NCBI GenBank assembly: GCA_024655885.1
Contig: JANLFN010000003.1
Span: 158,792 to 222,791 of the forward strand
Direction: 5' to 3'
Source of the DNA: Eubacteriales bacterium
GTDB taxonomy: Bacteria; Bacillota; Clostridia; Acetivibrionales; JANLFN01
Length of the DNA: 64,000 bases
The notes under the pieces are model-generated. The model did not search any database. It was not told the DNA's origin and saw only the letters and a program-made list of their open reading frames with translations. The translations under genes and the position numbers were made by a program. Below, piece by piece: positions 1 through 42,512 of this stretch; position 1 is the stretch's first letter; each line of letters begins with the position of its first letter.

Positions 1-484
1 TGTCTCCCGGTTTTATATCGACCGTCACCGCGTCAAGGATGACCCCCTTATCCTGGGGTCCGGCAATGGAAATACGGACCGCTGCCCTGCCTTCCTCCCC
101 CTTGCCGGGATCCTTTAAAGCCTGGGTACCGCCGCCGCTTTGAGGAGCCGCCGTTTTTTCTTTTCCGCCCGCCTCACCGGAAACCGATGGAACTGCCGTC
201 TTCACCGTTTCTTCCGAGGCGGGCCTCCGGGAGCCGGATGCGGGCAATGAGCCCTATTTCTCCGTCTTTGCGGTATCCCCCATTCCCGCCCCTCCCGCGG
301 AAGCTGCAAGCTCCGGGGCGTTATCCGGGGACTGCTGCAGTACGTTTGCCTGCGGAGGGGAAGTTTCTCCCTCCGCAGGCAGGTCCGCCTTTTGGCCTGT
401 CCCGCCGCAGGAAGCCATCAGCACCAATACCGCCAGCAGCACCGAAAGACATGGCAGCAATCCTGTTTTAACAATTCTGTTCAC
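1..484 (-). pseudogene. Lipoprotein with a low-complexity linker and the start of a DUF4430-like domain. The frame is interrupted by an in-frame TAG at 254-256, and the 3' end runs off the window.
   Basis: GTG start at 484 is preceded by AGGAGG with a 6-nt spacer. Signal peptide plus lipobox (LVLMAS|C). The ORF track stops at 254, but the same frame stays open from 253 to position 1. That stretch encodes ...GKGEEGRAAVRISIAGPQDKGVILDAVTVDIKPGD, which resembles the opening strand of the DUF4430 modules in neighbouring genes. Confidence 0.5.
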
Positions 485-542
485 GGTTATCCTCCTATCT
501 TAAGACAGGGAGAAGGGAAAAGTCCCCCTTCTCCCCGGTCTC

Positions 543-3500
543 CTATTTCTTTGCCTTCATCTCATACAGCCTGACGGCGATCACTGCCGCCATCTCGCGG
601 GTTACAGGCTCTTCAGGCCGGAAAAAGGAATTGTCCCCGGTCATGATGTTTTTATTGTACACGGCCGTAATGGACGGTCTGGCCCATTCGCCGGCGGTGT
701 CCAGGTCCGCAATGCCCGGATTTTCACTTTCTGCCTGAAGGCCAAAGGCCCTTGCCGCCATAACCGCCATTTCCTGCCTGGACACAGGCCGGTCGGGTGC
801 GAATTCCTCATCGGATACGCCTTTGATCAGCCCTTTCTCCCTTGCCTTCAGCACATATCCCGCATACCAGCTGTCCTGCCGCACATCCCGGTACACCGGA
901 CTGTAGCCGGCCATCGGCTGTTCCCCCAGGAGCCTTAAAAGCAGCACGGCAAATTCCGCCCTGGATATCTTCCTTGCGGGCTCGAACCGTTTTGCAGCGG
1001 CATCCGTGCCCTGCATCAAATGATACTGGGCCGCCTTTTGCACATAGGGCAGGGCCCAGCCGGATATGGCCTGGGTGTCCGAATACAGGTCGGCCGCACC
1101 GGCCAGTTCATACAGCCTCTTGCCGCCTTCCAAGAATCTCTTGTAGGCCGTGAGAGCCATCAGGGCCTGCTCTGTCGCCATTTCATCGCTGTTTGCGCCC
1201 TTGAGGTGGGAAAAGCCCCCGTCTTCTTTTTTAAATGCCAGCAGAGAGCTTAAAAGATCCCCCTCGGTCTTGGTGAAGGAAGCGCTCCCGGGGTCCACGC
1301 CCAGGGAGGTCAGTGCAATAATCACCTGGGAAATGCTTTCGCTGGATTCGCTGTCCCAGTTCTTAAAGCCCCCGCTTTTCAGCTGGGCCCTTGAAAGCCA
1401 GTCCACGGCCTTTGTCACCGCTTTTTTCACGTCCGCCCTGTCCTTGTAATTGGACAGGGCCTGCAGTGCCATGGCGGTGAGATCCACCCCGCTTTTCTCC
1501 CCTTTTGAAAGGCAGAATCCGCCGTCGGAGTTCTGGTATTCCAGGATCAGGCTCGCCAGCCCGTCCCTTGTCCACCGGGCATTTTCCGGTATGCCGTATT
1601 TCCCGCTGTCCAGGGCAATCAGTGCAAACACGGGCCCGGAGACTCCCTGTTTGTCCACTTTTTCAAAGTTATACAGCTTTTCAACCAGGTTGCAGCCTTC
1701 CAGGGCTTCAGGGTCCAATCCTACAGCTTTTGCCGCCAGCATGACCCTGGCGATATCCGTTGCAGTGCGGAAGGAACCCGCCTGTTCCTTAATATAATTC
1801 TTAAGGGACTCCCCATACCCGGCCGGGACTTTCTGACCGGCCTGGGCCAGCGCAAAAGCGGACCAGTCCGAGAGGGGGTCCTGTCCCAGTATTTTTTTCA
1901 CTGTCGTCTGCATATTCTCAGACAGCACCTTTTTCAGTTCTTCCTTCTGTGTCTTCGCAGAAGTCCCGGCGCTGCCCGACCCACTGCCGGCCTCTGTCCG
2001 GCCGCTGCCGTCGGTCTGGGTGCCTGTCCCGCCGTCCTCAGTGCCGTCCAGGGTCAAGGTGTAATACCACCGGACCACATCCCCGTCGCTGAGAATGTAT
2101 GTCCCGGCGCTCACATTGGGATTGATCCCGTTCACCGAGTACATCCATCCGCTTTCGGGTCCCCGGTCGAACTCAGCCAGCCCGTCGATGCTGGACACAT
2201 ACAGGCTGGACCCCGAGCCTTTTTTCGTGACCCTGCCGTTTCCCAACGCCCTTACAAGGATACTGTAGGGAGTGTCTCCGGCCTGTAGCGCAACCGTCCT
2301 GGAAGACAGGATTGTCCCTTTCTGGCTGTCTCCCGTCACCGACAGCGTTACAGTCTTTGAAGAAGGCGTGGTATCCCCGCCGCTGCCGCCGCTTCCGCTG
2401 TCGTCAGGCGGCTGGGGGGTGTACACCACAAATTTGGTGAAGTGCTTTGTCCATACCACCAGATCGCCGCCCACGTCAATTTTACCGGCTCCGTCATCCG
2501 GCAGGGCGAGAGCTGCCGCCATCGAATCCTGTGCAAGAACGGTGTCAATCGTTTGCAGGGAACCGCTGCTGCCGATAAAGCCCAGTGATTTTCCAGCCTG
2601 TCCTGGAAACACCAGTCTTACAGGTTTGTCGAAGGCCAGGGAAAAACCCGGGGCCCCCACTTCAATAACAGCGTTGACGGTGGCATTCGATACCGTAACA
2701 CTGCTCGTGGGCAAAAGGGAGGGCAGCTGTATAGTGCCATCCCAGCCTGCGGACGAGGTGATGGTGGTGTTCTGGGGAATGTCCATGGCCACGGTTCCCC
2801 CCGTCACGGCCACGTCCGCATGGATATAGGGAACGGTTGCGGCAGTTTGTCCATTGGTCACGGTTGTATTAACCTGCAAGCTGGTACTGCTGATTCCCTG
2901 ATCCACAGTGATCACTGTAGGGGCGGAAACCTCCAGTTTTTTCCCGTTTGTGCCTATATTGACCCGGTTGTCGGGACTACTGTAAACCACCGGTATGCTT
3001 CCGGTTCTCAGCAGACTGGGATAACTCCCCGGATTGTCCTTGCTCACCTTTAACCCATAGGTACCCGGCACATCCACACTGGATATCTCTACCTTTCCCT
3101 CATCGTCGGTGGTATACGTTTTTCCGTTGAAGCTTACAACAGCGCCTGCAACTTCTTTCTTATCTACCATTTGTTGCGCCGTATAATCATAATAACCGGC
3201 AGAGTAGACCGTAGCCGCCACAGATTCTCCTACCTTGGGCTGCTCGGGTTGGATGTCCACCAGGGGAATCAGCGTGTCGGGAGGATACATCCCGTAATAG
3301 AATATGATATCGTCCCCGTCGTTGATGTTATGTTCCGCAGGAACATCAGAAATTAATTCTCCATTGACCAGACACAGCCACCCATCCCAACCATGAAATT
3401 GCCCTGCCGTTTCTCCATTAATACTGCTGACATAGCCCCCGCTTTCAGCAGTATAAGGTATCTCCATAGAATCCAGCAGCTGCTTTAATGCGTCCAGCAC

Positions 3501-5159
3501 TGTCTGTTCGCTCCCTGAAGAGGAAACAGTCACATCCGTGTCTGCGATCGTTTCACTGCTTCCCTCCACCCGCACATGGACGGTTTTGGAAGCGGGACTG
3601 TAGTAAACCACCGTTATTCCGGTTCTCATCAGGCCGGGATAACTTCCCGGATTGTCCTTGCTCACCTTCAATGTATATGTACCGGCTGTATCTGCACTGG
3701 GGATAAGCACCTGTCCCTCATCATTTGTAGTGTACGTTTCACCATTGAAGCTTATCCGGGCACCTGAGACCTTAACCGGTACTTTCTCTTCTGCCTCCCC
3801 TTCCCAGTGAGAATAGCTGGAGGTAACTGTAACCGTCAAATCTTCTCCCACTTTGGGTTGGGCAGGCTGGATCTCTATCTCGGGCACCAGCGTATCCGAG
3901 GGACTCGCGGGATACGTGCCGTAATAAAATACCAGATCGTCTCCGCTCTGAAGCGCATAGGCGCCTATCCCTACGGAAGACAGCTTCCCGTTAATCAGGA
4001 AAAGCCAACCCGCATACGGTGGGCTTGCTTGTGCCTCCTCCCCGTTAATACTCGTGAGATAGAGTCCTAAAAGCGAGTCTACAATCTCATAGCTGATGTT
4101 CCGGTCATTCAGCACCTGTATTAAGGCATCCGCAGCGGTTTGCCCGTATACGGCAGATGTTACGCTGACATCCGTATCCGCAATGGTCTCGCTGCTTCCC
4201 TCCACACGCACGTGAACAGGAACCCCCGGCGGAACCGGCGATGAAGCTCCCAGCCTGGTCCACACGCTTGAGCCCTCTGCAATATCCCCGAGGGCAATCA
4301 GTGATTGTTCTGTTGCCAGGCCATTGGATTGAGTCGAATCAAGTTGAAATAAAAAGGAGCCATCCTCTCTCTGGAACCGCTTGAGAGCATCCAGCATGGA
4401 CGTTCCATCTTTTTCCCAGCTATCGGAAAATATGTTTTCTCCAGCAGCCACCAGCCCGGAGATTACCGTTGCAATGGTATTTGAATTTTCCTTTCCCTGC
4501 GAGCTGAAGCCGCCTGTACCAAGCTGCTGTTCTCTTAAAAATGAAACGGCACTACTGATGGCTGTATTTACCCCTGTCTGCTCCCTATGCCTTGACAAGG
4601 CAACAAGGGCCATCCCGGTGACATCATTATCACCATAGTCGCCGGTCAGCGCAAAGCCCCCGTCCGATTTCTGCTGGCTTAAAAGCCATGACACGGCATT
4701 TGACTTATTATAATCCCCTCCCGCAGTATCCAGGGCGATCATAGCCCATATGTGCATATTGACAGCGCCATTGCCGAAAGAGCCGTTTGTTCCTTGCTTA
4801 CCGGCCAGTTCAGAAAGCAAATTTCTTCCACCGAGAGCATTGCTCGGGTCCTCACCCATAGCCAGGAGACCGAGTATGCAGCCTGCATATTCGGTGGGCT
4901 GCACGTTCCCGGCCAGATCCCCGCCTTCCCACTGGGGCAGTGTCCACTTCCCGTCATGGATGTCCTGCCCGGCTCCCTTCAAGGCCACCAGCTCCCACCA
5001 GGAATCAAGCGTTGTCTTGTGCTGCCTGTAGTAGTCCACTGCCGCCGTGAGCATGTCCGAACCGGCATCCGCAAAAAGATTGACCGGCAGCAGTGTTATA
5101 AGCATGGATAGAACCAGCAAAAGAACTATGTTCTTCGTAAAAACTCTTTTATATCTCAT
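543..5159 (-). CDS. Giant secreted S-layer-anchored protein: two prenyltransferase/terpene-cyclase-like alpha-alpha toroid regions, three DUF4430 (transcobalamin-like C-terminal) modules, Ig-like spacers and three C-terminal SLH repeats.
   Basis: The ORF is 543..5273. The start is placed at ATG 5159 (AAGGGGGAG SD, then signal peptide MRYKRVFTKNIVLLLVLSMLITLLPVNLFA) because 5160-5273 overlaps the riboswitch terminator hairpin. Toroid repeats: QQKSDGGF, QLGTGGF, REDGSF, YQNSDGGF, QLKSGGF, KKEDGGF. DUF4430 signatures: GWLFLINGK..SGDDLVFYYG, GWLCLVNGE..DGDDIIFYYG, GWMYSVNGI..DGDVVRWYYT. SLH motifs: ISRAEFAVLLLRLLG, VSRQEMAVMAARAFG, VTREMAAVIAVRLYE. Confidence 0.85.
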   Translation of the reverse strand: MRYKRVFTKNIVLLLVLSMLITLLPVNLFADAGSDMLTAAVDYYRQHKTTLDSWWELVALKGAGQDIHDGKWTLPQWEGGDLAGNVQPTEYAGCILGLLAMGEDPSNALGGRNLLSELAGKQGTNGSFGNGAVNMHIWAMIALDTAGGDYNKSNAVSWLLSQQKSDGGFALTGDYGDNDVTGMALVALSRHREQTGVNTAISSAVSFLREQQLGTGGFSSQGKENSNTIATVISGLVAAGENIFSDSWEKDGTSMLDALKRFQREDGSFLFQLDSTQSNGLATEQSLIALGDIAEGSSVWTRLGASSPVPPGVPVHVRVEGSSETIADTDVSVTSAVYGQTAADALIQVLNDRNISYEIVDSLLGLYLTSINGEEAQASPPYAGWLFLINGKLSSVGIGAYALQSGDDLVFYYGTYPASPSDTLVPEIEIQPAQPKVGEDLTVTVTSSYSHWEGEAEEKVPVKVSGARISFNGETYTTNDEGQVLIPSADTAGTYTLKVSKDNPGSYPGLMRTGITVVYYSPASKTVHVRVEGSSETIADTDVTVSSSGSEQTVLDALKQLLDSMEIPYTAESGGYVSSINGETAGQFHGWDGWLCLVNGELISDVPAEHNINDGDDIIFYYGMYPPDTLIPLVDIQPEQPKVGESVAATVYSAGYYDYTAQQMVDKKEVAGAVVSFNGKTYTTDDEGKVEISSVDVPGTYGLKVSKDNPGSYPSLLRTGSIPVVYSSPDNRVNIGTNGKKLEVSAPTVITVDQGISSTSLQVNTTVTNGQTAATVPYIHADVAVTGGTVAMDIPQNTTITSSAGWDGTIQLPSLLPTSSVTVSNATVNAVIEVGAPGFSLAFDKPVRLVFPGQAGKSLGFIGSSGSLQTIDTVLAQDSMAAALALPDDGAGKIDVGGDLVVWTKHFTKFVVYTPQPPDDSGSGGSGGDTTPSSKTVTLSVTGDSQKGTILSSRTVALQAGDTPYSILVRALGNGRVTKKGSGSSLYVSSIDGLAEFDRGPESGWMYSVNGINPNVSAGTYILSDGDVVRWYYTLTLDGTEDGGTGTQTDGSGRTEAGSGSGSAGTSAKTQKEELKKVLSENMQTTVKKILGQDPLSDWSAFALAQAGQKVPAGYGESLKNYIKEQAGSFRTATDIARVMLAAKAVGLDPEALEGCNLVEKLYNFEKVDKQGVSGPVFALIALDSGKYGIPENARWTRDGLASLILEYQNSDGGFCLSKGEKSGVDLTAMALQALSNYKDRADVKKAVTKAVDWLSRAQLKSGGFKNWDSESSESISQVIIALTSLGVDPGSASFTKTEGDLLSSLLAFKKEDGGFSHLKGANSDEMATEQALMALTAYKRFLEGGKRLYELAGAADLYSDTQAISGWALPYVQKAAQYHLMQGTDAAAKRFEPARKISRAEFAVLLLRLLGEQPMAGYSPVYRDVRQDSWYAGYVLKAREKGLIKGVSDEEFAPDRPVSRQEMAVMAARAFGLQAESENPGIADLDTAGEWARPSITAVYNKNIMTGDNSFFRPEEPVTREMAAVIAVRLYEMKAKK

Positions 5160-5231: not shown

Positions 5232-5515
5232 AAAATAAAACCTCTCAACTGGAATTGTTAAGAGGTTTTTCATAAAAAGGCATATTTAAATGCACAAAAA
5301 AAACACCCCCTATCCTTCGTAGAGTTTTTGGTGCATGGACACAGGCAGGTCTTCTGGCTCAAGCCTCATCACCCCCCCTACCTTCCCGGTTTATCAGTGG
5401 CATTCCTGGGGGGATTCTTCTTATACAGCGGCGGGACCGCGCGGGATTCTCACCCGACTTCCCTTTTCACCGGTTCGCGATTACCCCTTAATCACAACCG
5501 GCACCTGAATCCTTT
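5232..5515 (-). promoter_or_regulatory. Cobalamin riboswitch RS1 (aptamer ~5304-5512) with terminator hairpin (5237-5270).
   Basis: The minus strand reads GGTGCC...AAGGGAAGTCGGGTGAGAATCCCGCGCGGTCCCGCCGCTGT...GCCACTG...GGGAAGG...AGCCAGAAGACCTGCC (B12 box = 5344-5359). It is followed by AAACCTCTTAAC-N7-GTTGAGAGGTTT plus a U-rich tail. Confidence 0.9.
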
Positions 5516-5781
5516 TTCAATATTTAATTTGTACGGCTGCTGTCCTCCTGTGCAGGAAAGAATTCTTTGCAGCAAATGCTGATGAACAAAACACCCTCCT
5601 GCCACTATAGACAAAACGGGATAAATCTATGTTATAGTTCCACCCCTTATATGAAAATTCTTCTAAAACAGGTTCATAGAAGGGAAGGCTCCCTAGTTTC
5701 AATTGCAGCGGAGTTCACCCTCGAGTCCCAAGCCGGATTTTCCACCCGGCTCCCCGGGCAAATTTTTCCCTTGCCAAGTAT

Positions 5782-5810
5782 ATTTTATGTAACTGTCTCC
5801 TTTATGTCAA
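5782..5810 (-). promoter_or_regulatory. Near-consensus sigma-A type promoter (TTGACA-17-TAAAAT) reading toward RS1.
   Basis: Minus strand TTGACA at 5805-5810 and TAAAAT at 5782-5787, with an exact 17-nt spacer. It lies ~260 nt upstream of the RS1 aptamer. Confidence 0.6.
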
Positions 5811-5875: not shown

Positions 5876-6607
5876 CTATTCCGCTTTTTTGCACAGCCTG
5901 GCACCGAGGAAGAGAAAAACAATAAAATACAGCATCAGTATTCCAAGGTGGGAAGCCATGCTCAAAGGGTCCTCACCCCGGCTTCTCAAGCCAAGGCTTG
6001 TGTGGGTGAGCGGCAAAACCCAGATCAGCTGCTTCAGTCCGAAGGGCATTTTATCCAGGGGGAAAAAAGTGCCGCAAAGGAAGGACATGGGAGTGATGAT
6101 AAAGTTTGTGAATTTCCCCATGTCCGCATGAGAATCAATAAGCAGCCCCACAGCAAAGCCTAGTGCGGAAAAGACAAAGCAGTTAAGCACTATGATGGCG
6201 ATAAAATAGGCGTCAATCCGGACTCCTGCCCTGAATGCAAGGGACAGGAGGAGGATGAGCAGTCCCGAGTACATGCCTCTCAATGCTCCCGCCGTTATCT
6301 TGCCCGCGGCATATACCATCATATTCAAAGGGGCAATCATGAATTCCTCGAAGGTTTTCTCGTAGATCCTGGAAATATTGATGCTGTTGGCAATATTGCT
6401 GAAGCTGGCCGTCATGGTGCTGAGCCCTATGATTCCCGGGATTACAAAACTCACATAGCCCGTTCCGCCTACCTTTATTTCGCTTCCAAGCCCCCATCCG
6501 AAGGCGATGAGATAGAGTACGGGTCCGACCATGGAGCCGGTGGTGGTGCTCCAGAATTTTCGTTTAAAAATCACATACTCCTGCCATAAAATGGTCATGA
6601 ACTGCAT
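5876..6607 (-). CDS. ABC-2 type exporter permease.
   Basis: 243 aa with six predicted hydrophobic segments and an ABC-2/NodJ-DrrB-like layout. It starts 1 nt after the stop of the upstream ATPase gene. Confidence 0.8.
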   Translation of the reverse strand: MQFMTILWQEYVIFKRKFWSTTTGSMVGPVLYLIAFGWGLGSEIKVGGTGYVSFVIPGIIGLSTMTASFSNIANSINISRIYEKTFEEFMIAPLNMMVYAAGKITAGALRGMYSGLLILLLSLAFRAGVRIDAYFIAIIVLNCFVFSALGFAVGLLIDSHADMGKFTNFIITPMSFLCGTFFPLDKMPFGLKQLIWVLPLTHTSLGLRSRGEDPLSMASHLGILMLYFIVFLFLGARLCKKAE

Positions 6608-6608
6608 A

Positions 6609-7473: not shown

Positions 7474-7534
7474 GAGACAAGGGGACGGTTCTTCTGTCTG
7501 CCAAAGGCAGACAGAAGAACCGTCCCCTTGTCTC
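7474..7534. repeat. A-type perfect palindrome A1 (29-bp arms, 3-nt loop), REP-like.
   Basis: GAGACAAGGGGACGGTTCTTCTGTCTGCC-aaa-GGCAGACAGAAGAACCGTCCCCTTGTCTC. A 26-nt core is identical to the copy at 11513-11573. No U-tract on either side. It overlaps the stop codon of the 7533..8759 gene. Confidence 0.85.
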
Positions 7535-9811: not shown

Positions 9812-9952
9812 GCTTTGTTTTCTCCAATCGGTCTAAAGAAAATCATCCCGCGGAAAACAGGGTTCGCCGGTCAAACCAGGCCATACCGCGGGCTTTTTTC
9901 CTAATTCAGGCGCAAAGGCCCTTGTGAAGACGGGTCCGGGGCCCCCGTCTCC

Positions 9953-10969: not shown

Positions 10970-10995
10970 CCTAAACATCTCCTATATTATGAAAT

Positions 10996-11390: not shown

Positions 11391-11512
11391 TTCAATTTTA
11401 TACATTATAAAAACCCTTCTGTCCTACATGGACAAATTTGTTACAAACCATTCCTACGTAATTAATTACATTCTACCAATTTCAATGGCAAAACTCAAGC
11501 ATTAATCCATAA

Positions 11513-33493: not shown

Positions 33494-33494
33494 C

Positions 33495-34466: not shown

Positions 34467-36047
34467 TCAGTTCCCCCCGTTTAACCGATTAAAATATTCC
34501 AGCACCACCGGCTTTTCCCCGGAGGGTATTTCGTATTTGGAGACATACTCCATGCCCTCCTGCTTGAACTGCCTGTACAGGCTGTCCCTGTCCATGAGCT
34601 GGCCGGCGGTTTCCGCCACCCGGTCCGACTGCTTGCTCTTTATGTCTCCCTGCCCCTCCTGCCACTTTCCTTTCACCTGGGAGGCACTGCCGCCTTCCGG
34701 AGCGGGAAGGGCGGAGGCCTCGCTCCTGTCCACCTGTCCCTCGCGGCCTTTTTCGTCCCCGCCGCTGCCGTCCGAGACGCCTCCCCCGCCCTTCCCGTCG
34801 GGGCTTCGCACGGCCGTGTTGCCGGCTTCTCCCAGGGCGGTCCCCGAGGGGCTGCCGCCTCCGGCCTCTCCGTCTTTCATTCCCGCGTTTTCACCCTCGG
34901 TGAAGGCGCTGCTCTTCCGGTCCCGCCCGTCGCTGTCAAAGCCTTCCCGTCCCTTTGCCATCAGCCTTTCCTTCAGGCTCTGAAGCTTTGCTTCCGCCTC
35001 GTCCGCCGCCTCCGGCTCCTGTTTTTTTGCCAGGGCCCCGGTGAAAGCGTCCGAAAGCTTCTGTCCGTCCAGGACCCCCTTTTCCGCCGCCGCCTTCAGC
35101 TTTTCCAGGGCCTCCCCCCGGGGGGACGTGCTGTCCGCGTCGGCAGTGCTCTGGAGCCTCCGGATATTGTCCAGCATGCGCTGCTGTTCCTCACCGGTAA
35201 GGCTGAGGGCCTGCACCGCTTTGGCCGCATCTTCCGCTTTCCCCGACTCCAGCAGGGCTCTGGCTTCTCTATAGGGGCTGCCCATGCCGTCAAAGATGCC
35301 CGCCAGCCCTTTCAGGTCCTCTCCCGCCGCCTCCTTCCGCCGGGCCTCCAATTCCTTCTGGGCGGCGGAAACGTTCAGGGCCGCCTCCTCATAGCTATAG
35401 CCTGCGGCCAGCTTTTTTTGGAGGCTGCGGAGAATGTCCGGCGTCCTGTCCCGGGAAACGCCCTCTCCGGTCCCCTCCTCTTTTTCCTGCTCCGCCTGCT
35501 GCGCCAGCCGGGCCACGTTTTCCGCCTCCTCCTTCAAGTCCTGGTGGACCTGCTGCTTCAAAGCGGCCGCCCTGGTATTGGCGGAAGGGATAAAAAAGAC
35601 GCCTGCGGACAGGGCCGCCAGCAAAAGGGCCGCCAGCAGCCTTCTCCAGCCTATGCGCAGCCTGTACCTCTCGGCGGGGCGGAAGCCCTCCACCGCGTCC
35701 CGCACCTCCTCCCTGAAGGCCTCCAGCACAGGCCCCCTCCCCTCCCTGTACTCCAGGTAGGTGGACAGCCTGTCCATGAGGCCCAGGGCGTCTCCCGCCC
35801 GGGCCGCCGCCTCCAGGCCCGGCCGCATCAGCAGGCCCGCGGCAAGTCCTGCGGAAAGGATGAGCAGGGCGGCAAAGGCGCACTTGGGAAGCACCTGCAC
35901 AAGGATTACGGCGTGGGCGGCGGCCGCGAGGGCCAGGGCGCACAGGGCCCACGCCAGCAGCGCATTTATGGAGCACCGGAGGATATGCTCCAGCCACAGC
36001 CTGTTCCTGAGTTTTTTTACCGCAGCAAACACCGGGTCCTGCTTCAT
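34467..36047 (-). CDS. Membrane-anchored coiled-coil / low-complexity protein (unknown function, DUF4175-like architecture).
   Basis: Three N-terminal hydrophobic helices, then an Ala/Glu/Lys-rich coiled region and a Gly/Ser/Glu-rich tail. Abuts moxR with a 0-nt gap. Confidence 0.6.
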   Translation of the reverse strand: MKQDPVFAAVKKLRNRLWLEHILRCSINALLAWALCALALAAAAHAVILVQVLPKCAFAALLILSAGLAAGLLMRPGLEAAARAGDALGLMDRLSTYLEYREGRGPVLEAFREEVRDAVEGFRPAERYRLRIGWRRLLAALLLAALSAGVFFIPSANTRAAALKQQVHQDLKEEAENVARLAQQAEQEKEEGTGEGVSRDRTPDILRSLQKKLAAGYSYEEAALNVSAAQKELEARRKEAAGEDLKGLAGIFDGMGSPYREARALLESGKAEDAAKAVQALSLTGEEQQRMLDNIRRLQSTADADSTSPRGEALEKLKAAAEKGVLDGQKLSDAFTGALAKKQEPEAADEAEAKLQSLKERLMAKGREGFDSDGRDRKSSAFTEGENAGMKDGEAGGGSPSGTALGEAGNTAVRSPDGKGGGGVSDGSGGDEKGREGQVDRSEASALPAPEGGSASQVKGKWQEGQGDIKSKQSDRVAETAGQLMDRDSLYRQFKQEGMEYVSKYEIPSGEKPVVLEYFNRLNGGN

Positions 36048-36766
36048 GTCCTGTTTCGCCGCCTTTCTTTTACTTGGGGATATTTTATGGAAATTGCCAT
36101 GTTGACACAGGAAAATAAGGTCCAGAACAGCAGACAGGCGGGGTACGGCATGTAGCCGCCCTGCACCTGCCCGCCGGTCTGGGCGTTCAGCAGCCCGGCT
36201 GCGGAATGCAGCGGGTTCAAAAGAAATAAAAAGGGGATGCGTTTATCAAAAACCGTAGTGATGACAGTCCGGTTATACTCTACGAAAAAGTAGAGGAACA
36301 CGGGCAAGAGCACCAGTACGGCAAAAATGAAAACTGCGAGAAGGAAGCCTTTCCACTTTTTGATACGCAGGGCTTCCAGGGCACTCTTAAAGCTCAGCAG
36401 GCCCGTCCCCCAAAGGGCCTGTACCGCCAGCACCAGCATGAAATTCACGCCGCTCAGCTTTCCCAGCACCAAAATCATGAGGATGAGGGGGATGGGGGAA
36501 AGGGTGAATACCAGCACTCCCCCCAGCATTTTCAGGTATTTTCCCCGTCCGGCCCCGCCGGTCTTCCAGAAGGGCAAGAGCACCGAAAAGAGCACAAAGG
36601 AAAACAGCATAAAGTACATGTACGCTTTCCCCCAGGCCTCGGGATCATACCCTTCCGCCCTCATGGCCACCAGGAGGAAATAGGCTGTTGAAACCACCGA
36701 GAGCAGGGCGATATAGACTGTAATGATGAGCTTGTTTTCTTTTCCTATGTTCAAAATCTCTATCAT
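36044..36766 (-). CDS. Polytopic membrane protein (about 6 TM helices), unknown function.
   Basis: 240 aa, strongly hydrophobic, with ATGA-type overlaps on both sides. Confidence 0.65.
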   Translation of the reverse strand: MIEILNIGKENKLIITVYIALLSVVSTAYFLLVAMRAEGYDPEAWGKAYMYFMLFSFVLFSVLLPFWKTGGAGRGKYLKMLGGVLVFTLSPIPLILMILVLGKLSGVNFMLVLAVQALWGTGLLSFKSALEALRIKKWKGFLLAVFIFAVLVLLPVFLYFFVEYNRTVITTVFDKRIPFLFLLNPLHSAAGLLNAQTGGQVQGGYMPYPACLLFWTLFSCVNMAISIKYPQVKERRRNRT

Positions 36767-38877
36767 GATTGGCCTCCCGCCGTCCCTTTTTCTCCCTTGG
36801 GATCATAGGCGCCCTTCAGGGAAATGTCGGGGAGGATGACCCTGGAGGCCCCTGTGATTCTTATCTTAAGAGGGCCCCCTGCTGTGCACCGGTCCAGGGA
36901 ATCCCCTGAAAGGCTGTTTCCTTCCAATTCCCGCCATGACCCCTGCTTCCGGTCAAAGACCTCCAGAGTGCCGGCGCCCTTTTCAGGCACGCCGTAGAAT
37001 TGGATTTCCTCCGCCCGGATGTCCGGGGGAAGCACATAGTACACCGGCAGCTCCTCCCCCTGCCCGGGGAGGTACTCCTTTTTCCCCGCCGGCGCCGTGT
37101 TCTCTCCGGGGTCGGGGACCGGCGCTATATAGCCGCAGGGGAAATAGACCTCCCCCTCCGGCGCATTCAGTTCCGCCGGGAAAACGTGGAGGACCGTGGA
37201 CCTTATACTCCGGGCCCTGCCGTCCACCTGCACCCTCTCGGTGCCGTCGGCAAAGCCCAAAAGCCTCCCCCCCGGGGCCCCGTCCTCCAGGCCGTAATAG
37301 TAGTGCTCAAACAGCAGCTGCTGTCCCTCCTCCATCCTGGCCGTCCTGGAAATGGTGTCCAGAAAATTGTACTCGCTTAGGCTTCTCAGGTTATGGTCAA
37401 GGCGGTACTTCACCCGGACCTCCTCCCTCCCCTCCAGGTCCCCCAGGGAAATCACCGTGTCTCCCAGGAGGAGGAAGCACTGACAGAGCTTGTAGGGAAG
37501 GGGGTTTTTAATTTTCCCCGTCAGCACCTCTCCCTGGTCCAGGTCCAGCTTGAATACGGCGGCCTCCGACGGTTCCAGGCCCATGCCGTAGGCGTAGTGA
37601 GGGCCCTTCCCCGCAAAGCCGGATTCCATCTCCAGGGGGTCCTCCACCCCCTGGTCCTGGCCGCAGTTGCACAGGAAGGAGGCTTCCGGCCACTTCAGGG
37701 AAATCTTCCCCTCCCCGCGGGGATAGACCCCTGTGAGGGTGTATCTCCTGGACGTATTTCCCTTTTCATGGATTTTGACCGCCGCCGCAGCGGCAGAGGT
37801 ATCCTGCACCCCTCCCCACAGGGCCGCTATGTAAAATATGCCGCAAAAGCCCGCCACCACGGCGGAAAAAAGCCAGTGGAGCTTTTTGTCCAGGCAGAGG
37901 GCCGTGCCCGCCGCCAGCAGGTACAGCGCCAGAAGGGACAGCAGGAAGAAAAGGGCATCGGCCGTAGGCCTGAGCCTTCCGTCCGACGCCGGATACAGCT
38001 TCTCCACCTCCCGCAGCTGCCGTGTGAGGCCGCTCTCTCCCACTATTTTGGAAATCCCATAGGGTGTGGCGTATTTTTGAAGCACCTCCTCCACAAATTC
38101 CGGCGTTTTGTTCTCCAGTCCCTCGGGTACGGGCACGATGACCCCGTCCCCCACGCTCCTGGGGCCGGTCAAGTCTTCAAACAGGCCTTTCATATTTTTA
38201 TAGGCGTACTGCCCCGCGCCCACCAGCAGGCAGTTGCCCCGTCTTATCCAGCGTTCCAGGGTTTTGCCGCTCTCCGCTGCCAGGTCCGTCCCATCGAAGT
38301 CGTCCACCAGGATAAAGTTGAAATTTTCAAGCTCTTCCCCGCTGTAGGCAAAATCCTTATCCAGCCGCACCACATGGGCTTTTTTCCCTCCCAGGGCGTC
38401 CAGGTCTATCCCCGCCGCATAGGCGAAGGTCTCGGGGGTATCGCTGAGGATGCCTATAAGCACGCTGTTTTCAGGCAGCATCTCAGGTGAAAAATCAGCG
38501 CCGGCCACCGCCTTTCCCCCGCTTTCAAGGCCGGCGGAAATTTTTGAGTCCGCCTTAAAGAAGGGAATGGAAAACACAAAGCTTTTTCTGCAATATTTTG
38601 GAATCTTTATCCCGTGGCTGTAGTTTCTTCCCTCCGCCACCACGGTCAGCGTCCCTTCCCAATCCTCTCCCGTCCCTTCTACCGAGACGGCCACCGGGTT
38701 GACTCCTCCCAGCCTGCACTTCCCGTCAAAGCCGGCTGCAATGGAAATGTTTATATTTTGAGCCCCATAGGCACAGGTGTGCGCTCCAAAAAGCCAGAGG
38801 ACCACCGTGAGAAAAATGGCCGTAAACAGCCTCAAGCCATATTTTCCGGTGATCTGTCCCGTTCTTTTACTCTCCAT
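36763..38877 (-). CDS. 704-aa membrane protein, unknown function: N-terminal exported domain, central TM pair, C-terminal beta-rich domain.
   Basis: Signal/anchor LFTAIFLTVVLWLFGAHTCAYG. Central helices FFLLSLLALYLLAAGTALCL and WLFSAVVAGFCGIFYIAALWG. The segment VLIGILSD...FNFILVDDFD...LERWIRRGNCLLVGAG is reminiscent of the GATase1-like domains in Bat/GldG-type proteins (weak). Confidence 0.55.
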   Translation of the reverse strand: MESKRTGQITGKYGLRLFTAIFLTVVLWLFGAHTCAYGAQNINISIAAGFDGKCRLGGVNPVAVSVEGTGEDWEGTLTVVAEGRNYSHGIKIPKYCRKSFVFSIPFFKADSKISAGLESGGKAVAGADFSPEMLPENSVLIGILSDTPETFAYAAGIDLDALGGKKAHVVRLDKDFAYSGEELENFNFILVDDFDGTDLAAESGKTLERWIRRGNCLLVGAGQYAYKNMKGLFEDLTGPRSVGDGVIVPVPEGLENKTPEFVEEVLQKYATPYGISKIVGESGLTRQLREVEKLYPASDGRLRPTADALFFLLSLLALYLLAAGTALCLDKKLHWLFSAVVAGFCGIFYIAALWGGVQDTSAAAAAVKIHEKGNTSRRYTLTGVYPRGEGKISLKWPEASFLCNCGQDQGVEDPLEMESGFAGKGPHYAYGMGLEPSEAAVFKLDLDQGEVLTGKIKNPLPYKLCQCFLLLGDTVISLGDLEGREEVRVKYRLDHNLRSLSEYNFLDTISRTARMEEGQQLLFEHYYYGLEDGAPGGRLLGFADGTERVQVDGRARSIRSTVLHVFPAELNAPEGEVYFPCGYIAPVPDPGENTAPAGKKEYLPGQGEELPVYYVLPPDIRAEEIQFYGVPEKGAGTLEVFDRKQGSWRELEGNSLSGDSLDRCTAGGPLKIRITGASRVILPDISLKGAYDPKGEKGTAGGQS

Positions 38878-40207
38878 AAGGTATGTTCGTCACCCCTTCT
38901 TCCGTCACCACCGCTCCAAAGCACCCCGTCAAAGCCTTGGGATTGTTCAAAAGGGTGTCTATGGCCAGCCTGTATCCCTGGAGGTCGGTGCCGGTGACCA
39001 GCCAGATGGGATTGATGCTCCCTATGGACGCTCCGTAGGCGTACACGGCCCCTGAATGGTCGTAGGTGGATATGGCCTTTCCTTTGAAGTTGAGGGCCTG
39101 CAGCTTTCGGTCTTCAAATTTGGCATAGACGCCCACCAGCTTGTTCTTGGCGTTGATGTCCTTCAGGTCCTCATTGTTTTGGGACAGCTCATCCCACACC
39201 CCCAGCAGGATGTAATACTTTTTCGGGGCCCTGATGATCCCGGGGTTGTAGGCTGCGGTATCCACCTGCTTGACCCCCTGGGCCGTCAGGCTTTCCTTCA
39301 GCTTCTGCGCATCCTCTTTGGTATCTTCGGTGTACATGATCACCGTCCCCGGGTTCTTTCCCATAAAGCCGCTCTTGAAGGGCTGGGGATAGGAGCCGAT
39401 GACGGCGGGAACAAACATGGTGAGGCTCCAGTCGTGGTAATCCCACCAGATGACATCCCCGGGCTGGGGCTTGTACTCCGCAACGCCTATGGGGGCCAGG
39501 ATGCCGTTGACCCAGTAGAACCAATCCAGCTTTTTCCGGTCCTTTCCCGTAAAGAAGGTGTATCCGGATTCCAGGCCGTTGATGGCATTCACGAAGCCTC
39601 CCCCGTAGGCCGTCTGGATGTCCAGGTTCCTGAACATGACCTCCATGCCCACTTCATCCCGGACCAGCCCCACATTTTTGGCAAAAATATTTTTGTGCCC
39701 GTAATCCCGGGTGACGATCAAATCCACATGGTACGGGCTCTCAATGTCCCCCGAGGCCTTATACTCCTTTGAGTTCTCTCCTGCGGGCCTGCCTTCCTGG
39801 TACTTGATCTCCCCCTGGACAGGACCCTTGTACCCTTTATAGGGACTGCCCGCCGCAGAGGCATCCCCGCCTTCCTTTTTCCCGGCGGCGGACCCCTTCC
39901 CCGTGCCTTCTCCCGCATTCCAGCCCGCGGATGAATCCGGACTGCCACCGGACAGGCCCGCTCCCTCGCCTGTTCCCGTGCTCTGCTGACCAGGGCCGGA
40001 GGTGTCCTCGGTACTTATCCCGCTTTCAGACAGGGCGGCCGCAGCCGTGGTTTCTCCGGCGGTTATCACCCCTGCCGCCGCGGTTTCACCGGCTTTATCC
40101 ATATTGGAAACGGTCCTAGGCTCCCCTCCCGTGCACCCGTTGATGGAAACCGCCGTCAGCACGGCTGCCATGAAAACGGCAGCCCTTTTCAAATACACTC
40201 TTTTCAT
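38867..40207 (-). CDS. Lipoprotein with a low-complexity linker, a DUF4430 (transcobalamin-like) domain and an extra C-terminal domain.
   Basis: AGGAGGG SD and lipobox AVSING|C. DUF4430 signature GFVNAINGLESG...LDWFYWVNGILAPIGVAEYKPQPGDVIWWDYHDW. Confidence 0.8.
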   Translation of the reverse strand: MKRVYLKRAAVFMAAVLTAVSINGCTGGEPRTVSNMDKAGETAAAGVITAGETTAAAALSESGISTEDTSGPGQQSTGTGEGAGLSGGSPDSSAGWNAGEGTGKGSAAGKKEGGDASAAGSPYKGYKGPVQGEIKYQEGRPAGENSKEYKASGDIESPYHVDLIVTRDYGHKNIFAKNVGLVRDEVGMEVMFRNLDIQTAYGGGFVNAINGLESGYTFFTGKDRKKLDWFYWVNGILAPIGVAEYKPQPGDVIWWDYHDWSLTMFVPAVIGSYPQPFKSGFMGKNPGTVIMYTEDTKEDAQKLKESLTAQGVKQVDTAAYNPGIIRAPKKYYILLGVWDELSQNNEDLKDINAKNKLVGVYAKFEDRKLQALNFKGKAISTYDHSGAVYAYGASIGSINPIWLVTGTDLQGYRLAIDTLLNNPKALTGCFGAVVTEEGVTNIPYGE

Positions 40208-40223
40208 CCGGCTTTCCCTCCTG

Positions 40224-40276
40224 AAAAAAACAACGGAAACACTACCTTATGATAGTGCTTCCGTTGTTCGGTCAGC
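40224..40276 (-). terminator. B-type module B3: a 16-bp hairpin plus U7 between the YezD-like ORF and the DUF4430 lipoprotein gene.
   Basis: Minus strand GCTGACCG-AACAACGGAAGCACTA-tcataagg-TAGTGTTTCCGTTGTT-TTTTT. It shares GCTGACCGAACAACGGAAGCACT with B1/B2 and ends 17 nt before ATG 40207. Confidence 0.7.
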
Positions 40277-40283
40277 ATTTACT

Positions 40284-40421
40284 CTAAAGTTTAATGGATT
40301 TTTTTAATTCCTCTACCCGTACAGGCTGTTTATCCTGTACAACAATTCTAACCTCGCCGTAGCCCGTATCGCGAATAATCCGGATGAGCTTTTCCTCCTT
40401 CTCGGTCAGGCCCCTGTCCAC
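40284..40421 (-). CDS. YezD-like (DUF2292-type) small protein, ~45 aa, first cistron after riboswitch RS3.
   Basis: GTG 40421 follows AAGAGGGGGG. The sequence LTEKEEKLIRIIRDTGYGEVRIVVQDKQPVRVEELKKSIKL parallels the ORF at 23618. The longer track ORF (to 40580) runs into the riboswitch aptamer. Confidence 0.5.
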   Translation of the reverse strand: MDRGLTEKEEKLIRIIRDTGYGEVRIVVQDKQPVRVEELKKSIKL

Positions 40422-40544
40422 ATCCCCCCTCTTTTTCCCTTTGATATCCCTTTCCCATTGGGTCTCAAAGCCGTCCCACGGCTCCAGGCAATGGCCTGCA
40501 GGCTCCTTTAAGGCTGCGGCAGGCTCCTTTTGATAAGCCACTAC

Positions 40545-40762
40545 AAGACACCCCCCTATTCCTCGTAGAGTCGATGGCATTTGGAAACAGGCAGGTCTTC
40601 TGGCTCAAGCCTCATCATCTCCCCTGCCTTCCCGGTTCATCAGTGGCATTCCTGGGGAGACTCCTCTTTTACAGCGGCGGGACCGCGCAGGTTTCTCACC
40701 CGACTTCCCTTTTCACCGGCCCGTAATTACACCTAAATCACGGCCGGCACCTGAGTCCTCCT
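40545..40762 (-). promoter_or_regulatory. Cobalamin riboswitch RS3 (no obvious intrinsic terminator).
   Basis: B12 box AGCCAGAAGACCTGCC = 40590-40605. Core GGGAAGTCGGGTGAGAAACCTGCGCGGTCCCGCCGCTGT. GCCACTG and GGGAAGG are present. Confidence 0.9.
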
Positions 40763-40787
40763 ATTCAATTTTTTGCGGTTACATTAT

Positions 40788-41603
40788 CTATCTAAATGTG
40801 GTATCCATATTGCCGGCCGTGCCCTCCTGCATGCGTGCGTCCCTGCAGTTTTTTACAAACTCCAGCACGGCGTCAATGGCATTGGCCTTGTGGCCATGGA
40901 CCACTTCGGGTCTTTCTATCATGATGACGGGTATACCCAGTTTTCTGGCCGCATTGATCTTCTCCATCACGCCTCCCGCATTTCCGCTCTCCTTTGTCAC
41001 CATTGCGGAGGCATTGCAGTATTTTAGCAGTGCGATGTTCAATTCTTCGGTAAACGGGCCTTTCATGGCAATAATGTTCTTTGCGTTAAATCCCAGTTTT
41101 TCACATCTTGCAATCACATTGCTCTCCGGAAGCACCCTCAGGTAAACCCGGTTCCTGTAGTCCGGGATTTTCACGAAGGCTTCCATTTTTCCGCTTCCCA
41201 CCGTCAGCAGGATATTTCCTTCAAGGAAACACAGCTTTTGCACCGCCTGTTCGTAGTCTTTCACTTTTACAATATCGGTGCCCGTGTACACCGTTTCTTC
41301 CCTTTCAAAGCGTATGTACGGCACGTTCCTTCTTTTACAGGCATCTACCGCATTCTGGGAGGCCTCCCTGGCGAAAGGGTGGGAAGCGTCCACCAGGCAC
41401 AGGGGCTTTGTTTCACTGAGAAGGCCCGCCAGCCATCGGAGCGTGATCCGGCCCTCCCGCACGTCCACATTCCCCAACGGTTTGAGCAGATCACCGCCCA
41501 ACCGGGTGGTGACGGTAGCAACCACTTCTATATTCATTTTCAGCAGTTCTTCAATGACCTGTCTTGCATCCGCCGTTCCTGCGACAACGAGCACTTTTGG
41601 CAT
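40788..41603 (-). CDS. cobK: Precorrin-6A / cobalt-precorrin-6A reductase.
   Basis: MPKVLVVAGTADARQV..., CLVDASHPFAREASQNAVDACKRRNVPYIRFER, LTVGSGK, RVLP, IIAMKGPFTEELN, MVTKESGNAGG and LGIPVIMIERP follow the CobK/CbiJ pattern throughout. The start is placed at ATG 41603. Confidence 0.85.
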   Translation of the reverse strand: MPKVLVVAGTADARQVIEELLKMNIEVVATVTTRLGGDLLKPLGNVDVREGRITLRWLAGLLSETKPLCLVDASHPFAREASQNAVDACKRRNVPYIRFEREETVYTGTDIVKVKDYEQAVQKLCFLEGNILLTVGSGKMEAFVKIPDYRNRVYLRVLPESNVIARCEKLGFNAKNIIAMKGPFTEELNIALLKYCNASAMVTKESGNAGGVMEKINAARKLGIPVIMIERPEVVHGHKANAIDAVLEFVKNCRDARMQEGTAGNMDTTFR

Positions 41604-41625
41604 CTTATCCCCACAGCTATCCTCT

Positions 41626-42120
41626 TTAACAGTCATTTTCACTGCACTTGTAATCCATAATCCACCACTGGGCATACAATTTCGATTTTTTTAAAAAGGG
41701 GCCGATGAAGAGTTTTTTGTCATTCAGGCCTTCAGAGTCGGTGCGGGTATTAAAGTACGCACACAAGGTGTCTTCATCGATATTATGGATCCACTGGTCT
41801 ATTACTTTTTCAAAGGGGATATCCTCGCTGAAGATGGACTGGTCCTGATAAATGCTTACAATGTTGTACAGGTACAGCTCAAGCTTCAGAAGTTCACCCA
41901 CATTCTCAATATTCATTTTTTTCTCTACAATTTCCCTTACCCTGGATGCATAGGTGTCGTAGTATGCATTCAACTTCCTGTAAAACTCCACAACCTTCCT
42001 GTAATACTCATAGAAATATACATTGTTGATTTTTACTTTTACACTGTTTTTCTGGTTAAGATATCCAATTAATCCCGGTCTATATTCGGAAAATGGTATC
42101 TGGTAAAAATAGCGCTTCAT
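41626..42120 (-). CDS. Hypothetical cytoplasmic protein (164 aa, Tyr/Lys/Asn-rich, AT-rich gene), first gene after riboswitch RS4.
   Basis: ATG 42120 has AAGGAGG 6 nt upstream (the track ORF extends to 42201). No signal peptide and no motif I recognise. Confidence 0.6.
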   Translation of the reverse strand: MKRYFYQIPFSEYRPGLIGYLNQKNSVKVKINNVYFYEYYRKVVEFYRKLNAYYDTYASRVREIVEKKMNIENVGELLKLELYLYNIVSIYQDQSIFSEDIPFEKVIDQWIHNIDEDTLCAYFNTRTDSEGLNDKKLFIGPFLKKSKLYAQWWIMDYKCSENDC

Positions 42121-42225
42121 AAAATTCCTCCTTGCAAAGCAAAAATATTGGGCACCGGCAACCCTTCCTAGGCCCGGCGGCAAACCTGTTTTCCCACACA
42201 AAAAACAGTTCCGCCCCGGATAATA

Positions 42226-42512
42226 AAAAGCTCTCCGCTTTCAACCTTACAAGAAGGAAGCGGAGAGCTCAGCAATATGCCACTAAACCCATCTCCAATT
42301 GGTCCTCCATCTCTCGTAGAGTTACACGGTATAATAAAACAGGCAGGTCTTCTGGCTTAAGCGTCATCATCTCCTCTGCCTTCCCGGTTTAGCAGTGGCA
42401 TTCTCAGGGAGACTCTTCTCATACAGCGGCGGGACCGCGCGGGATTTTTACCCGACTTCCCTTTTCATCAGCTACGGTTCTATCCGTTAAAAACATAGCT
42501 GACACCTGTTTT
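42226..42512 (-). promoter_or_regulatory. Cobalamin riboswitch RS4 (aptamer ~42310-42512) with a 12-bp terminator (42226-42270).
   Basis: B12 box AGCCAGAAGACCTGCC = 42342-42357. Core GGGAAGTCGGGTAAAAATCCCGCGCGGTCCCGCCGCTGT. Terminator AGCTCTCCGCTT-N18-AAGCGGAGAGCT plus TTTTT. Confidence 0.9.

Follow-up and report, generated by a model that had tools for sequence, protein, structure and literature searches.

The stretch analysed here, 64,000 nucleotides (nt) of a Eubacteriales bacterium (GenBank assembly GCA_024655885.1, contig JANLFN010000003.1, positions 158,792 to 222,791; the window), carries five cobalamin riboswitches on its minus strand, which are called RS1 to RS5 in the order of their position. 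The reading that best accounts for them, and which is considered very probable, is that they belong to a minus-strand block of about 42 kb devoted to corrinoid acquisition, whose transcription units would each be headed by a cobalamin riboswitch that switches them off when corrinoid is sufficient. Within this block RS1, RS2 and RS4 would be paralogues from the lineage of a probably acquired island, with RS5 belonging to a cbiJ locus that resembles the core genome.

Five cobalamin riboswitches on one strand

The identity of the elements comes from a cmscan comparison of the full window with Rfam at the gathering threshold, which for RF00174 lies at 31.5 bits. Five full-length matches to RF00174 were returned, all on the minus strand, each spanning model positions 1-189 and scoring between 88.1 and 109.7 bits (Table 1), and their E-values of 1e-20 to 1e-26 exclude chance. 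A preliminary description of this DNA, made from the letters alone, had proposed five minus-strand cobalamin riboswitches at these places, with B12 boxes at 5344-5359, 11218-11233, 24163-24178, 40590-40605 and 42342-42357. Both points hold, in that the matches stand far above the threshold and all five boxes were found exactly there, reading AGCCAGAAGACCTGCC in four aptamers and AGTCAGGAGACCTGCC in one.

The structures point the same way. For nine sequences of one riboswitch subtype RNAalifold predicted 47 pairs, 13 of which are still paired after changes on both sides, including pairs in P1 and in the P6-P7 region. RS3 was excluded from this alignment, so that its structure is backed by the covariance-model alignment only, and it is without the long P2 hairpin that is found in the other four. 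The lowest score belongs to RS2 (88 bits), which has several non-canonical pairs in the P8-P10 region. All the riboswitches are placed in the 5' leaders of same-strand, B12-related genes with an expression platform adjacent to the aptamer. Judged by their sequences, the five elements are genuine cobalamin riboswitches, textbook examples that are nothing new in themselves.

With regard to transcription initiation, the best promoter match for RS1 is TTGACA-17-TAAAAT (11/12) at 5810-5782, 260 nt upstream of the aptamer, and a promoter scan found a promoter-like TTGTAA-17-TATAAT before RS5 at 42556-42528. The RS1 leader (5524-5810, minus strand) has a moderate fold z-score of -2.2 and holds a GCCGGGUGGAAAAUCCGGC hairpin that is reminiscent of P4 of B12 riboswitches. 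This structured leader of 250 nt matched no Rfam family at E-values up to 5 and no plasmid in a BLAST search.

Kinship of the copies and history of the locus

How closely are these five elements related, and what does this say about the way in which the locus was assembled? Pairwise alignment gives RS1, RS2 and RS4 a mutual identity of 84-85%, with RS5 at 74-77% to this trio and RS3 at 55-58% to all the others. Local alignment extends the homology of RS1 and RS2 over 292 nt at 82%, covering aptamer, platform and terminator, and the tract that RS4 has in common with each of them over 222 nt (the aptamer and about 20 nt), with RS5 sharing only a core of 130-160 nt and RS3 only 44 nt. The preliminary description had seen RS1 to RS4 as near-identical paralogues sharing long blocks, and RS5 as the divergent copy. 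Long blocks are indeed shared by four elements, as both of the quoted blocks occur exactly four times in the window, but the four are RS1, RS2, RS4 and RS5; the outlier is the third element, RS3, and near-identity is not what the alignments return.

A wider setting is provided by comparison loci and contigs from other genomes and metagenomes, which are identified by L-numbers. A 39-nt core block is present as one exact copy in each of nine other Bacillota species genomes (one genome scanned per species). Over the full length, the trio is 73-75% identical to L014, from a Bacillota metagenome-assembled genome (MAG), and 72-74% identical to L015 and L017, from Tepidanaerobacteraceae MAGs, set beside 74-76% between RS5 and the trio. 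A further comparison was confined to the variable columns of the alignment, as defined by five foreign members of the subtype. In these columns identity within the trio is 72-74%, between RS5 and the trio 52-55%, which is barely above the 38-53% between window and foreign sequences, and among the foreign sequences 30-43%. RS1, RS2 and RS4 are closer to one another than to any riboswitch found elsewhere, and on this sequence evidence they are true lineage-specific paralogues, the duplication within the lineage being real. By the same measure RS5 is simply a member of the same widespread Bacillota subtype, no closer to the trio than are the riboswitches of other families, and RS3 is unrelated to the other four beyond the family core.

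With respect to the age of this duplication, L007 and L073, which are same-position riboswitches from two different metagenomes, are 76% identical in the variable columns. The divergence within the trio is therefore about that of the same riboswitch in two different organisms, and the duplication is not recent. As proof of a recent event, the platform motif and the terminator held in common were also considered and were rejected, since both recur in other families: the motif (CUCUACG..GAUAGGGGGUGUUUU) is also found in L003, L007, L011, L012, L014-L017 and L073, and the ACCUCUUAAC-type terminator of RS1 and RS2 in L014 and L012. They are thus features of the subtype and not scars of duplication.

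The history as originally proposed, with four near-identical riboswitches resulting from recent duplication of an aptamer-platform cassette in front of unrelated operons and forming one unusually dense, contiguous regulon, is consequently unlikely. It can draw on the 292 nt that RS1 and RS2, terminator included, have in common, on the absence of any foreign riboswitch as close to the trio as its members are among themselves, and on the cassette-like appearance of the RS2-btuFCD unit, which is bracketed by two 59-nt inverted doublets of a REP-like repeat (7475-7533 and 11514-11572) that are 93% identical and lie exactly 4039 nt apart. Yet identities of 82-85%, and of 72-74% at unconstrained columns, are at the level of the divergence between L007 and L073; RS5 shows no more likeness to the trio than sequences from outside do; other families have this platform motif and this kind of terminator too; and RS4 has a different output module. 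Nor does the density stand out, given that L004 has a pair of riboswitches with 126 nt between them, that L009 has a pair within 1.3 kb, and that Dehalobacter restrictus shows a comparable density at its corrinoid loci (PMC4285132). As for the contiguous regulon of about 25 genes, an open reading frame (ORF) count does give about 25 same-strand genes together with one transposase, but the transposase, hairpins and terminators cut four to five of the genes off from the riboswitches in cis. For all its density the locus is an ordinary case of a regulatory design that is well known, and its history and rarity had been overstated.

Little probability attaches to a different account of the trio, in which its members would have been kept alike through gene conversion (concerted evolution), or because selection favours a single corrinoid specificity, and their likeness would not go back to one history of duplication. 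All three occupy the same strand and no more than 36 kb, and within-genome pairs are also the most similar ones in L004 (69%) and L009 (70%), suggesting a general within-genome tendency. The homology tracts, however, end differently (292 versus 222 nt), as expected for old duplications followed by platform replacement, the long identical tracts typical of recent conversion are lacking, and RS3 and RS5, members of the same cluster, have not been homogenised.

Base composition has its own bearing on the history. The genes from RS4 leftwards (window 1-40300) have a GC content of 0.566 +/- 0.042, with third-position values of 0.60-0.81 (about 0.72), and the core genes recD2, metK, ftsH, hpt, tilS, dnaB, rplI and gdpP (42590-57000) have 0.475 +/- 0.031, with third-position values of 0.50-0.65 (about 0.57). 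Among the riboswitches, RS5 has a GC content of 0.465 and RS1-RS4 lie at 0.54-0.57. As RS5, cbiJ and the 164-amino-acid (aa) ORF resemble the core in this respect, the boundary falls near RS4 and cbiJ, and the simplest reading of the composition is that a corrinoid-scavenging island with its own riboswitch family was probably joined to a native RS5-cbiJ locus. Within the core segment a SAM-I riboswitch (RF00162, 46868-46972, minus strand, 89.8 bits) precedes metK, the start of which is placed at about 46781 because the longest ORF overlaps this riboswitch.

Several riboswitches per genome, each heading a corrinoid operon, are familiar from organohalide-respiring Firmicutes. For Desulfitobacterium hafniense, Choudhary et al. 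2013 are said to have reported about 18 of them. Dehalobacter restrictus has five riboswitch-controlled corrinoid operons, and in that organism cobalamin represses operon-1 (cbiJ-first, Dehre_0277) and the transporter/salvage operon-2 (Dehre_0281) by 73- and 346-fold, respectively (PMC4285132). The likeness extends to RF00174 elements in front of synthesis, transport and salvage operons, to predicted terminators and, in Dehalobacter restrictus, to a cbiJ-first operon close by locus number to one for transport and salvage. The present locus differs in that all five elements are in one 42-kb same-strand block, that three of them are paralogues, that RS4 looks translational, and that the genes are mainly those of large S-layer-anchored binders and an uncharacterised MoxR-VWA module, in place of cbi/cob enzymes.

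Expression platforms and proposed switching

Fundamental to how these elements would work is the segment that follows the aptamer. In RS1, RS2, RS4 and RS5 the sequence AACUCUACGAnnGAU(A/G)G... lies directly 3' of P1 and is followed by a G-run. In the alignment of nine sequences the motif folds as a hairpin, CUCUA/UAGGG, which corresponds to P13, and its loop to L13, which pairs with L5 in the kissing loop; the G-run behind P13 has been retained in all the comparison loci for which the motif was listed above. Where a terminator follows, a C/U run able to pair with the G-run is always part of its 5' arm, namely ACCUCU in RS1, RS2, L012 and L014, GCCUCC in L016, CUCUCC in RS5 and ACCCCC in L004. 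That RS1 and RS2 have the same terminator stem, as originally described, was confirmed, with AAACCTCTTAAC/GTTGAGAGGTTT present after both (5238-5268 and 11117-11147). With RS3 the relationship is a different one: the 3' strand of P1, GCCCUGGC, is a perfect complement (8/8) of the terminator 3' arm, GCCAGGGC, and base pairing between them is seen in the minimum-free-energy structure (-68.8 kcal/mol, z-score -3.5).

From these arrangements we infer that RS1, RS2, RS3 and RS5 are terminator-type OFF switches. In RS1, RS2 and RS5 bound corrinoid would stabilise the L5-L13 kissing loop and with it the P13 helix; the stabilised P13 would withdraw the G-run from the C/U-rich 5' arm, allowing the terminator to form. 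When ligand is lacking, the G-run would pair with that arm as an antiterminator. In RS3 the ligand-bound state would hold the P1 3' strand with its P1 partner, so that the terminator forms, and in the free state this strand would pair with the terminator 3' arm as an antiterminator, permitting read-through. The same logic is established for the Priestia megaterium metE riboswitch, a repressing, transcriptional element in which, as Kennedy et al. proved by compensatory mutagenesis of three competing helices, the kissing loop stabilises P13, the 3' side of which otherwise pairs with the terminator 5' arm (PMC10653944). The mechanism is proven there, whereas for RS1, RS2 and RS5 it is drawn from cross-species complementarity, and the downstream genes are different.

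There is a slim chance that the output of the subtype is instead the translation of a short leader ORF beginning after the G-run, with ribosomes, and not an RNA antiterminator, blocking termination when corrinoid is low. A start codon is present 5-11 nt past the G-run in 11 of 13 platforms, where shuffled sequences give 5.9 (P about 0.005), and the ORFs end at or inside the terminator, with UGA in the 3' arm in RS1, UAA in the 5' arm in RS2 and UGA at the base in RS5, the short ORFs of L012 and L014 behaving likewise; in RS1, RS2 and RS4 the start codon is, moreover, in the 3' strand of a covarying outer helix. When the leaders in front of DUF2292 genes are set aside, however, 6 of the 8 terminator-type platforms have such a codon where about 3.6 would be expected, a suggestive excess that falls short of significance. 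Furthermore, the peptides are not conserved, L009 and L016 have no start codon, and an RNA antiterminator both accounts for the cross-species complementarity and has experimental precedent.

B12 classically represses uptake genes, and this speaks against any of the five being an activator. Even though RS2 has the weakest score and its irregular P8-P10 pairing, and an activating corrinoid riboswitch is known in front of Alkalihalobacillus halodurans cobT (PMC10653944), it is very improbable that any of the five is an inactive relic, or an activator instead of a repressor, seeing that all of them span the full model far above threshold, that the differences within the trio are compensatory in stems, and that in none does the P13 3' side share the sequence of the terminator 5' arm, as in the activating layout, being complementary to it instead.

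RS4 has another kind of platform. Folding revealed no terminator between its aptamer and the next ORF; P13 is followed by a Shine-Dalgarno-like G-run, AGGGGGG, and 9 nt downstream by GUG 40541, at which the NCBI gene call begins a small DUF2292 gene and which sits inside an outer helix that extends P13. A comparable layout recurs in six of six DUF2292-type leaders (RS4, L003, L007, L015, L017 and L073), with GUG or AUG 7-11 nt after the G-run opening either the DUF2292 ORF or a short preceding ORF that extends over the DUF2292 start. The G-run would be the ribosome-binding site and, with GUG held within the extended P13, bound RS4 would most likely block translation of the small ORF. RS4 thus reads as a translational OFF switch of the type known from E. 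coli btuB and env8HyCbl, in which the kissing loop hides the ribosome-binding site and start codon (summarised in PMC10653944). As in those elements, the ribosome-binding site and start codon of RS4 are in or next to the P13 3' side; the differences are the Gram-positive genome that carries RS4, its position within an operon immediately behind cbiJ, and its predicted target, an ORF of about 50 codons with a conserved terminator between it and the main operon.

RS4 begins 19 nt past the cbiJ stop, and the promoter scan found no consensus promoter before it, for which reasons it is probably inside the RS5 transcript and the DUF4430-MoxR-VWA operon is probably behind RS5 and then RS4 in series. 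The pair does not constitute a tandem architecture, in which two aptamers occupy one leader with no gene between, as RS5 and RS4 are 1556 nt apart with two ORFs between them.

The DUF2292 gene and the terminator that follows it recur together. DUF2292 has its conserved core at 40284-40421 (minus strand), stands directly behind a riboswitch in L003, L007, L015, L017 and L073, and has a relative in the RS3 unit, an ORF at 23618-23785 that is 51% identical (BLASTP, E 2e-12). The C-terminus of these YezD-like proteins, ...EE.KKSIKL, is almost invariant in both window genes (40284-40541 and 23618-23785) and their relatives. Structure prediction for DUF2292 was poor, giving a helix and a beta-hairpin at pLDDT 60. 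Past the DUF2292 stop comes a terminator element of the form CUGACCG-AAnAA-CGG-ARGCRCU, with a small CCG/CGG hairpin, a covarying stem and a U-run, which is found 6-9 nt after the stop in the window, L003, L004, L007, L015, L017 and L073, and farther away in L005. At least eight genomes from several Bacillota families have it in this place, with the DUF2292 gene on one side and the DUF4430-MoxR-VWA operon on the other. Two further copies in the window (27598-27649 and 24429-24483, minus strand) precede a surface-protein gene and RS3, which makes three where 0.02 would be expected by chance. The element is also present in L022 and L075, and its covariance model, R1, found two copies in a phage contig, one of them directly upstream of the major head gene, so that it is not specific to B12. 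A scan of metagenomes with the pattern was dominated by chance matches (only 3 of 120 real), and Rfam holds no matching family at E-values up to 5. A 24-codon mini-ORF (40204-40278) running across the element into the DUF4430 start was considered and rejected, as L003 and L015 do not preserve its extent and the AUG is missing from L007.

Genes behind the switches and the predicted corrinoid-capture machinery

The features of the block are collected in Table 1. The preliminary claim that the riboswitches head same-strand operons is upheld by downstream genes that are B12-related: DUF4430 binders, BtuFCD, cbiJ, and a module that elsewhere is near CbiZ, CobA and ECF genes. From this content it follows that the cargo serves corrinoid capture, import and salvage and not synthesis, cbiJ alone being biosynthetic.

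Table 1. Positions of riboswitches, platforms and gene groups in the window
Feature	Position	Strand	Evidence
RS1 genes: 1538-aa surface protein (three DUF4430, alpha/alpha toroid, three SLH); DUF4430 lipoprotein gene	1-5159	-	Pfam, translation
RS1 intrinsic terminator, sequence type as RS2	5237-5269	-	terminator scan, fold
RS1 cobalamin riboswitch aptamer	5327-5523	-	RF00174 105 bits
ABC-2 ATPase and permease, after 59-nt palindrome	5876-7448	-	Pfam
RS2 genes: btuF-like binding protein, btuC-like permease, corrinoid-type ABC ATPase	7533-10978	-	Pfam
RS2 intrinsic terminator (AAAACCUCUUAAC...GUUGAGAGGUUUU)	11116-11148	-	fold, exact motif search
RS2 cobalamin riboswitch aptamer	11201-11396	-	RF00174 88.1 bits
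RS3 genes: DUF2292-like ORF (23618-23785); 283-aa, 1459-aa, 1114-aa and 966-aa proteins	11584-23785	-	Pfam
RS3 intrinsic terminator	24029-24063	-	fold, sequence
RS3 divergent cobalamin riboswitch aptamer	24146-24316	-	RF00174 109.7 bits
No riboswitch in cis: 541-aa alpha/alpha-toroid and SLH surface protein; 331-aa TIM-barrel protein (AP_endonuc_2-like)	24858-27557	-	Pfam
276-aa REP-associated tyrosine transposase, at 3' end of VWA gene	27712-28542	-	NF047646 77 bits vs cutoff 80
RS4 module, eight genes: 446-aa DUF4430 lipoprotein; 704-, 240- and 526-aa proteins without family; MoxR AAA+ ATPase; DUF58; BatA-like; double-VWA	28568-40207	-	Pfam
Conserved terminator element (CUGACCGAACAACGGAAGCACU, hairpin, U-run) between DUF2292 and DUF4430 genes	40225-40278	-	fold z-score -6.7
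RS4 platform and small DUF2292 gene	40284-40572	-	Pfam DUF2292 26.2 bits vs cutoff 22; gene call; folds
RS4 cobalamin riboswitch aptamer	40573-40769	-	RF00174 104.5 bits
RS5 genes: 164-aa ORF (41626-42120); cbiJ, cobalt-precorrin-6A reductase (40788-41603)	40788-42120	-	Pfam CbiJ 1.2e-74
RS5 intrinsic terminator (GAGCUCUCCGCUU...AAGCGGAGAGC then UUUUU)	42225-42270	-	fold, sequence
RS5 cobalamin riboswitch aptamer, first element of cluster	42325-42524	-	RF00174 104.3 bits

The assignments vary in firmness. CbiJ scores 229 bits against TIGR00715 (cutoff 130). With the RS2 genes the Pfam families Peripla_BP_2, FecCD and ABC_tran are reached, and against the NCBIfam equivalog cutoffs the corrinoid ABC ATPase scores 343 bits (537 required), BtuC 323 (461) and BtuF a weak 36, the location behind a B12 riboswitch supporting a BtuFCD-type assignment. 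NCBIfam names none of the 164-, 704-, 240-, 526- and 283-aa proteins. An exact-sequence look-up with the BtuF-like protein gave no match; the 446-aa protein leads to a Clostridiales MAG, GCA_029907485.1 (contig JARYLS010000004.1), and to JGI metagenome 3300038743, in which the sequence of the window is also present. The start of the 1538-aa protein is taken as ATG 5159, since the first ATG of its ORF lies upstream of the RS1 terminator. The lipoprotein gene behind it begins with GTG 484 and is cut short by the window edge; an in-frame TAG (254-256) between its LMASC-lipobox signal peptide and its DUF4430-like domain could reflect a pseudogene, an assembly error or stop-codon read-through.

In the RS3 unit, the 1459-aa protein has CARDB and Ig-like domains and two beta-propellers, the 1114-aa protein a beta-propeller, Big_2 and a toroid, and the 966-aa protein DUF4430 and three SLH domains. 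The propeller proteins were examined for likeness to BtuG, for which their sequences give no support, as a phmmer comparison with the PDB returned only generic PQQ/BamB-type and designed propellers. Between the RS3 terminator and the DUF2292-like ORF there are about 130 nt of purine-rich, GGA-dense sequence (23900-24028, minus strand), for which Rfam offered no family at E-values up to 5, and about 400 nt of structured non-coding sequence separate that ORF from the 283-aa gene. The transposase has its own promoter, TTGACA-17-TATAAT, read from the sequence, and shortly before it comes a REP-like hairpin, AGACAAGGGGACGGTTCTCTTGTCT (28590-28617).

What might the surface proteins bind? DUF4430 is matched at 156 bits in the 1538-aa protein, 50.6 in the 446-aa protein and 31.9 in the 966-aa protein (cutoff 23.8). 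In an AlphaFold model built with 40 homologues (pLDDT 78), the DUF4430 part of the 446-aa protein superposes on the beta domain of human transcobalamin (5no0/5np4) with TM scores of 0.68-0.71 and root-mean-square deviations of 2.3-2.8 A, and haptocorrin and intrinsic factor are matched as well (4kki and 2pmv among the matches). The sequence of the protein matched nothing in the PDB, the relationship being visible by fold comparison only. By these matches the DUF4430 proteins are transcobalamin-like and predicted to bind corrinoids. The part that superposes is the B12-binding beta domain of the mammalian carriers, and toroid (alpha/alpha barrel) domains likewise accompany DUF4430 in the 1538-aa protein, although sequence identity is only 14-16%, the order of domains in that protein is reversed and corrinoid binding is here a prediction.

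In Bacteroides thetaiotaomicron, BtuG and BtuH, together with BtuB, form riboswitch-controlled, cell-surface, high-capacity corrinoid binders beside a transporter. The present locus resembles that system in having surface binders under riboswitches, adjoining transporter genes, and differs from it in that no sequence relationship was found, that anchoring is by SLH domains and lipoboxes, and that DUF4430 is the predicted binding domain. Surface capture of cobamides by this Bacteroides species is the topic of PMC13616437.

The gene order from DUF2292 to VWA is kept in L003-L010, among them a Peptococcaceae MAG, Desulfotomaculum arcticum, a sister Clostridia MAG and several metagenome contigs. 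Caminicella sporogenes is another cultured relative with the module. CbiZ adjoins the module in L004, L007 and L009, ECF transporter genes in L004 and L007, and CobA/BtuR with an ABC-2 pair in L007, and an RF00174 riboswitch heads or neighbours it in L004, L007, L009, L015, L017 and L073. In L004, the Peptococcaceae MAG, the two riboswitches are a true tandem pair (1565-1758 and 1884-2072) that precedes an operon of the order CbiZ, DUF4430/SLH, ECF, DUF2292 and module. In the sister MAG GCA_029907445.1 (L005/L006), from the same metagenome 3300038743, the module comes directly after an NrfD-type gene.

One may go further and regard the RS4 unit as a conserved relay of two steps, in which a translational riboswitch would control a DUF2292 protein of about 50 aa, and this protein, or its translation, would in turn govern the terminator element. 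The operon gated in this way, together with the SLH-anchored giants with their DUF4430, toroid and propeller domains, would then make up a Gram-positive machine for extracellular corrinoid capture with a role like that of BtuG and BtuH. This extended proposal is speculative and, taken as a whole, rather unlikely.

A number of observations pull against the reading of the block as a set of riboswitch-controlled OFF units on an acquired island. The plain minimum-free-energy folds of RS1 and RS2 show no clean alternative states; their full-length folds form the terminator, with the G-run pairing with an aptamer strand instead, and the antiterminator helix is short and has one mismatch. The translational assignment of RS4 comes from its layout only, and the strong conserved terminator after DUF2292 is not accounted for by the model. 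The ABC-2 pair, the 541-aa protein and the TIM-barrel protein are cut off from the riboswitches in cis by strong hairpins, the latter two being separated from RS4 by the transposase insertion. In L005 the module has no RF00174 match at the gathering threshold within 10 kb upstream, and the higher GC content of the island could in part be caused by its Gly/Ala/Pro-rich secreted proteins.

The value of these riboswitches is in the genes to which they point, as they mark about 25 mostly uncharacterised genes as predicted to be corrinoid-responsive. The DUF2292-DUF4430-MoxR-VWA module and the giant S-layer-anchored, transcobalamin-like proteins are candidates for a part in the poorly understood extracellular competition for corrinoids among Gram-positive anaerobes. 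RS1, RS2 and RS4, where one type of aptamer appears to have been coupled to different outputs (two terminators and one hiding of a ribosome-binding site), represent a natural experiment in platform swapping, and the five switches together provide a compact panel with which to ask whether paralogous aptamers in the same cell differ in their corrinoid selectivity or threshold.

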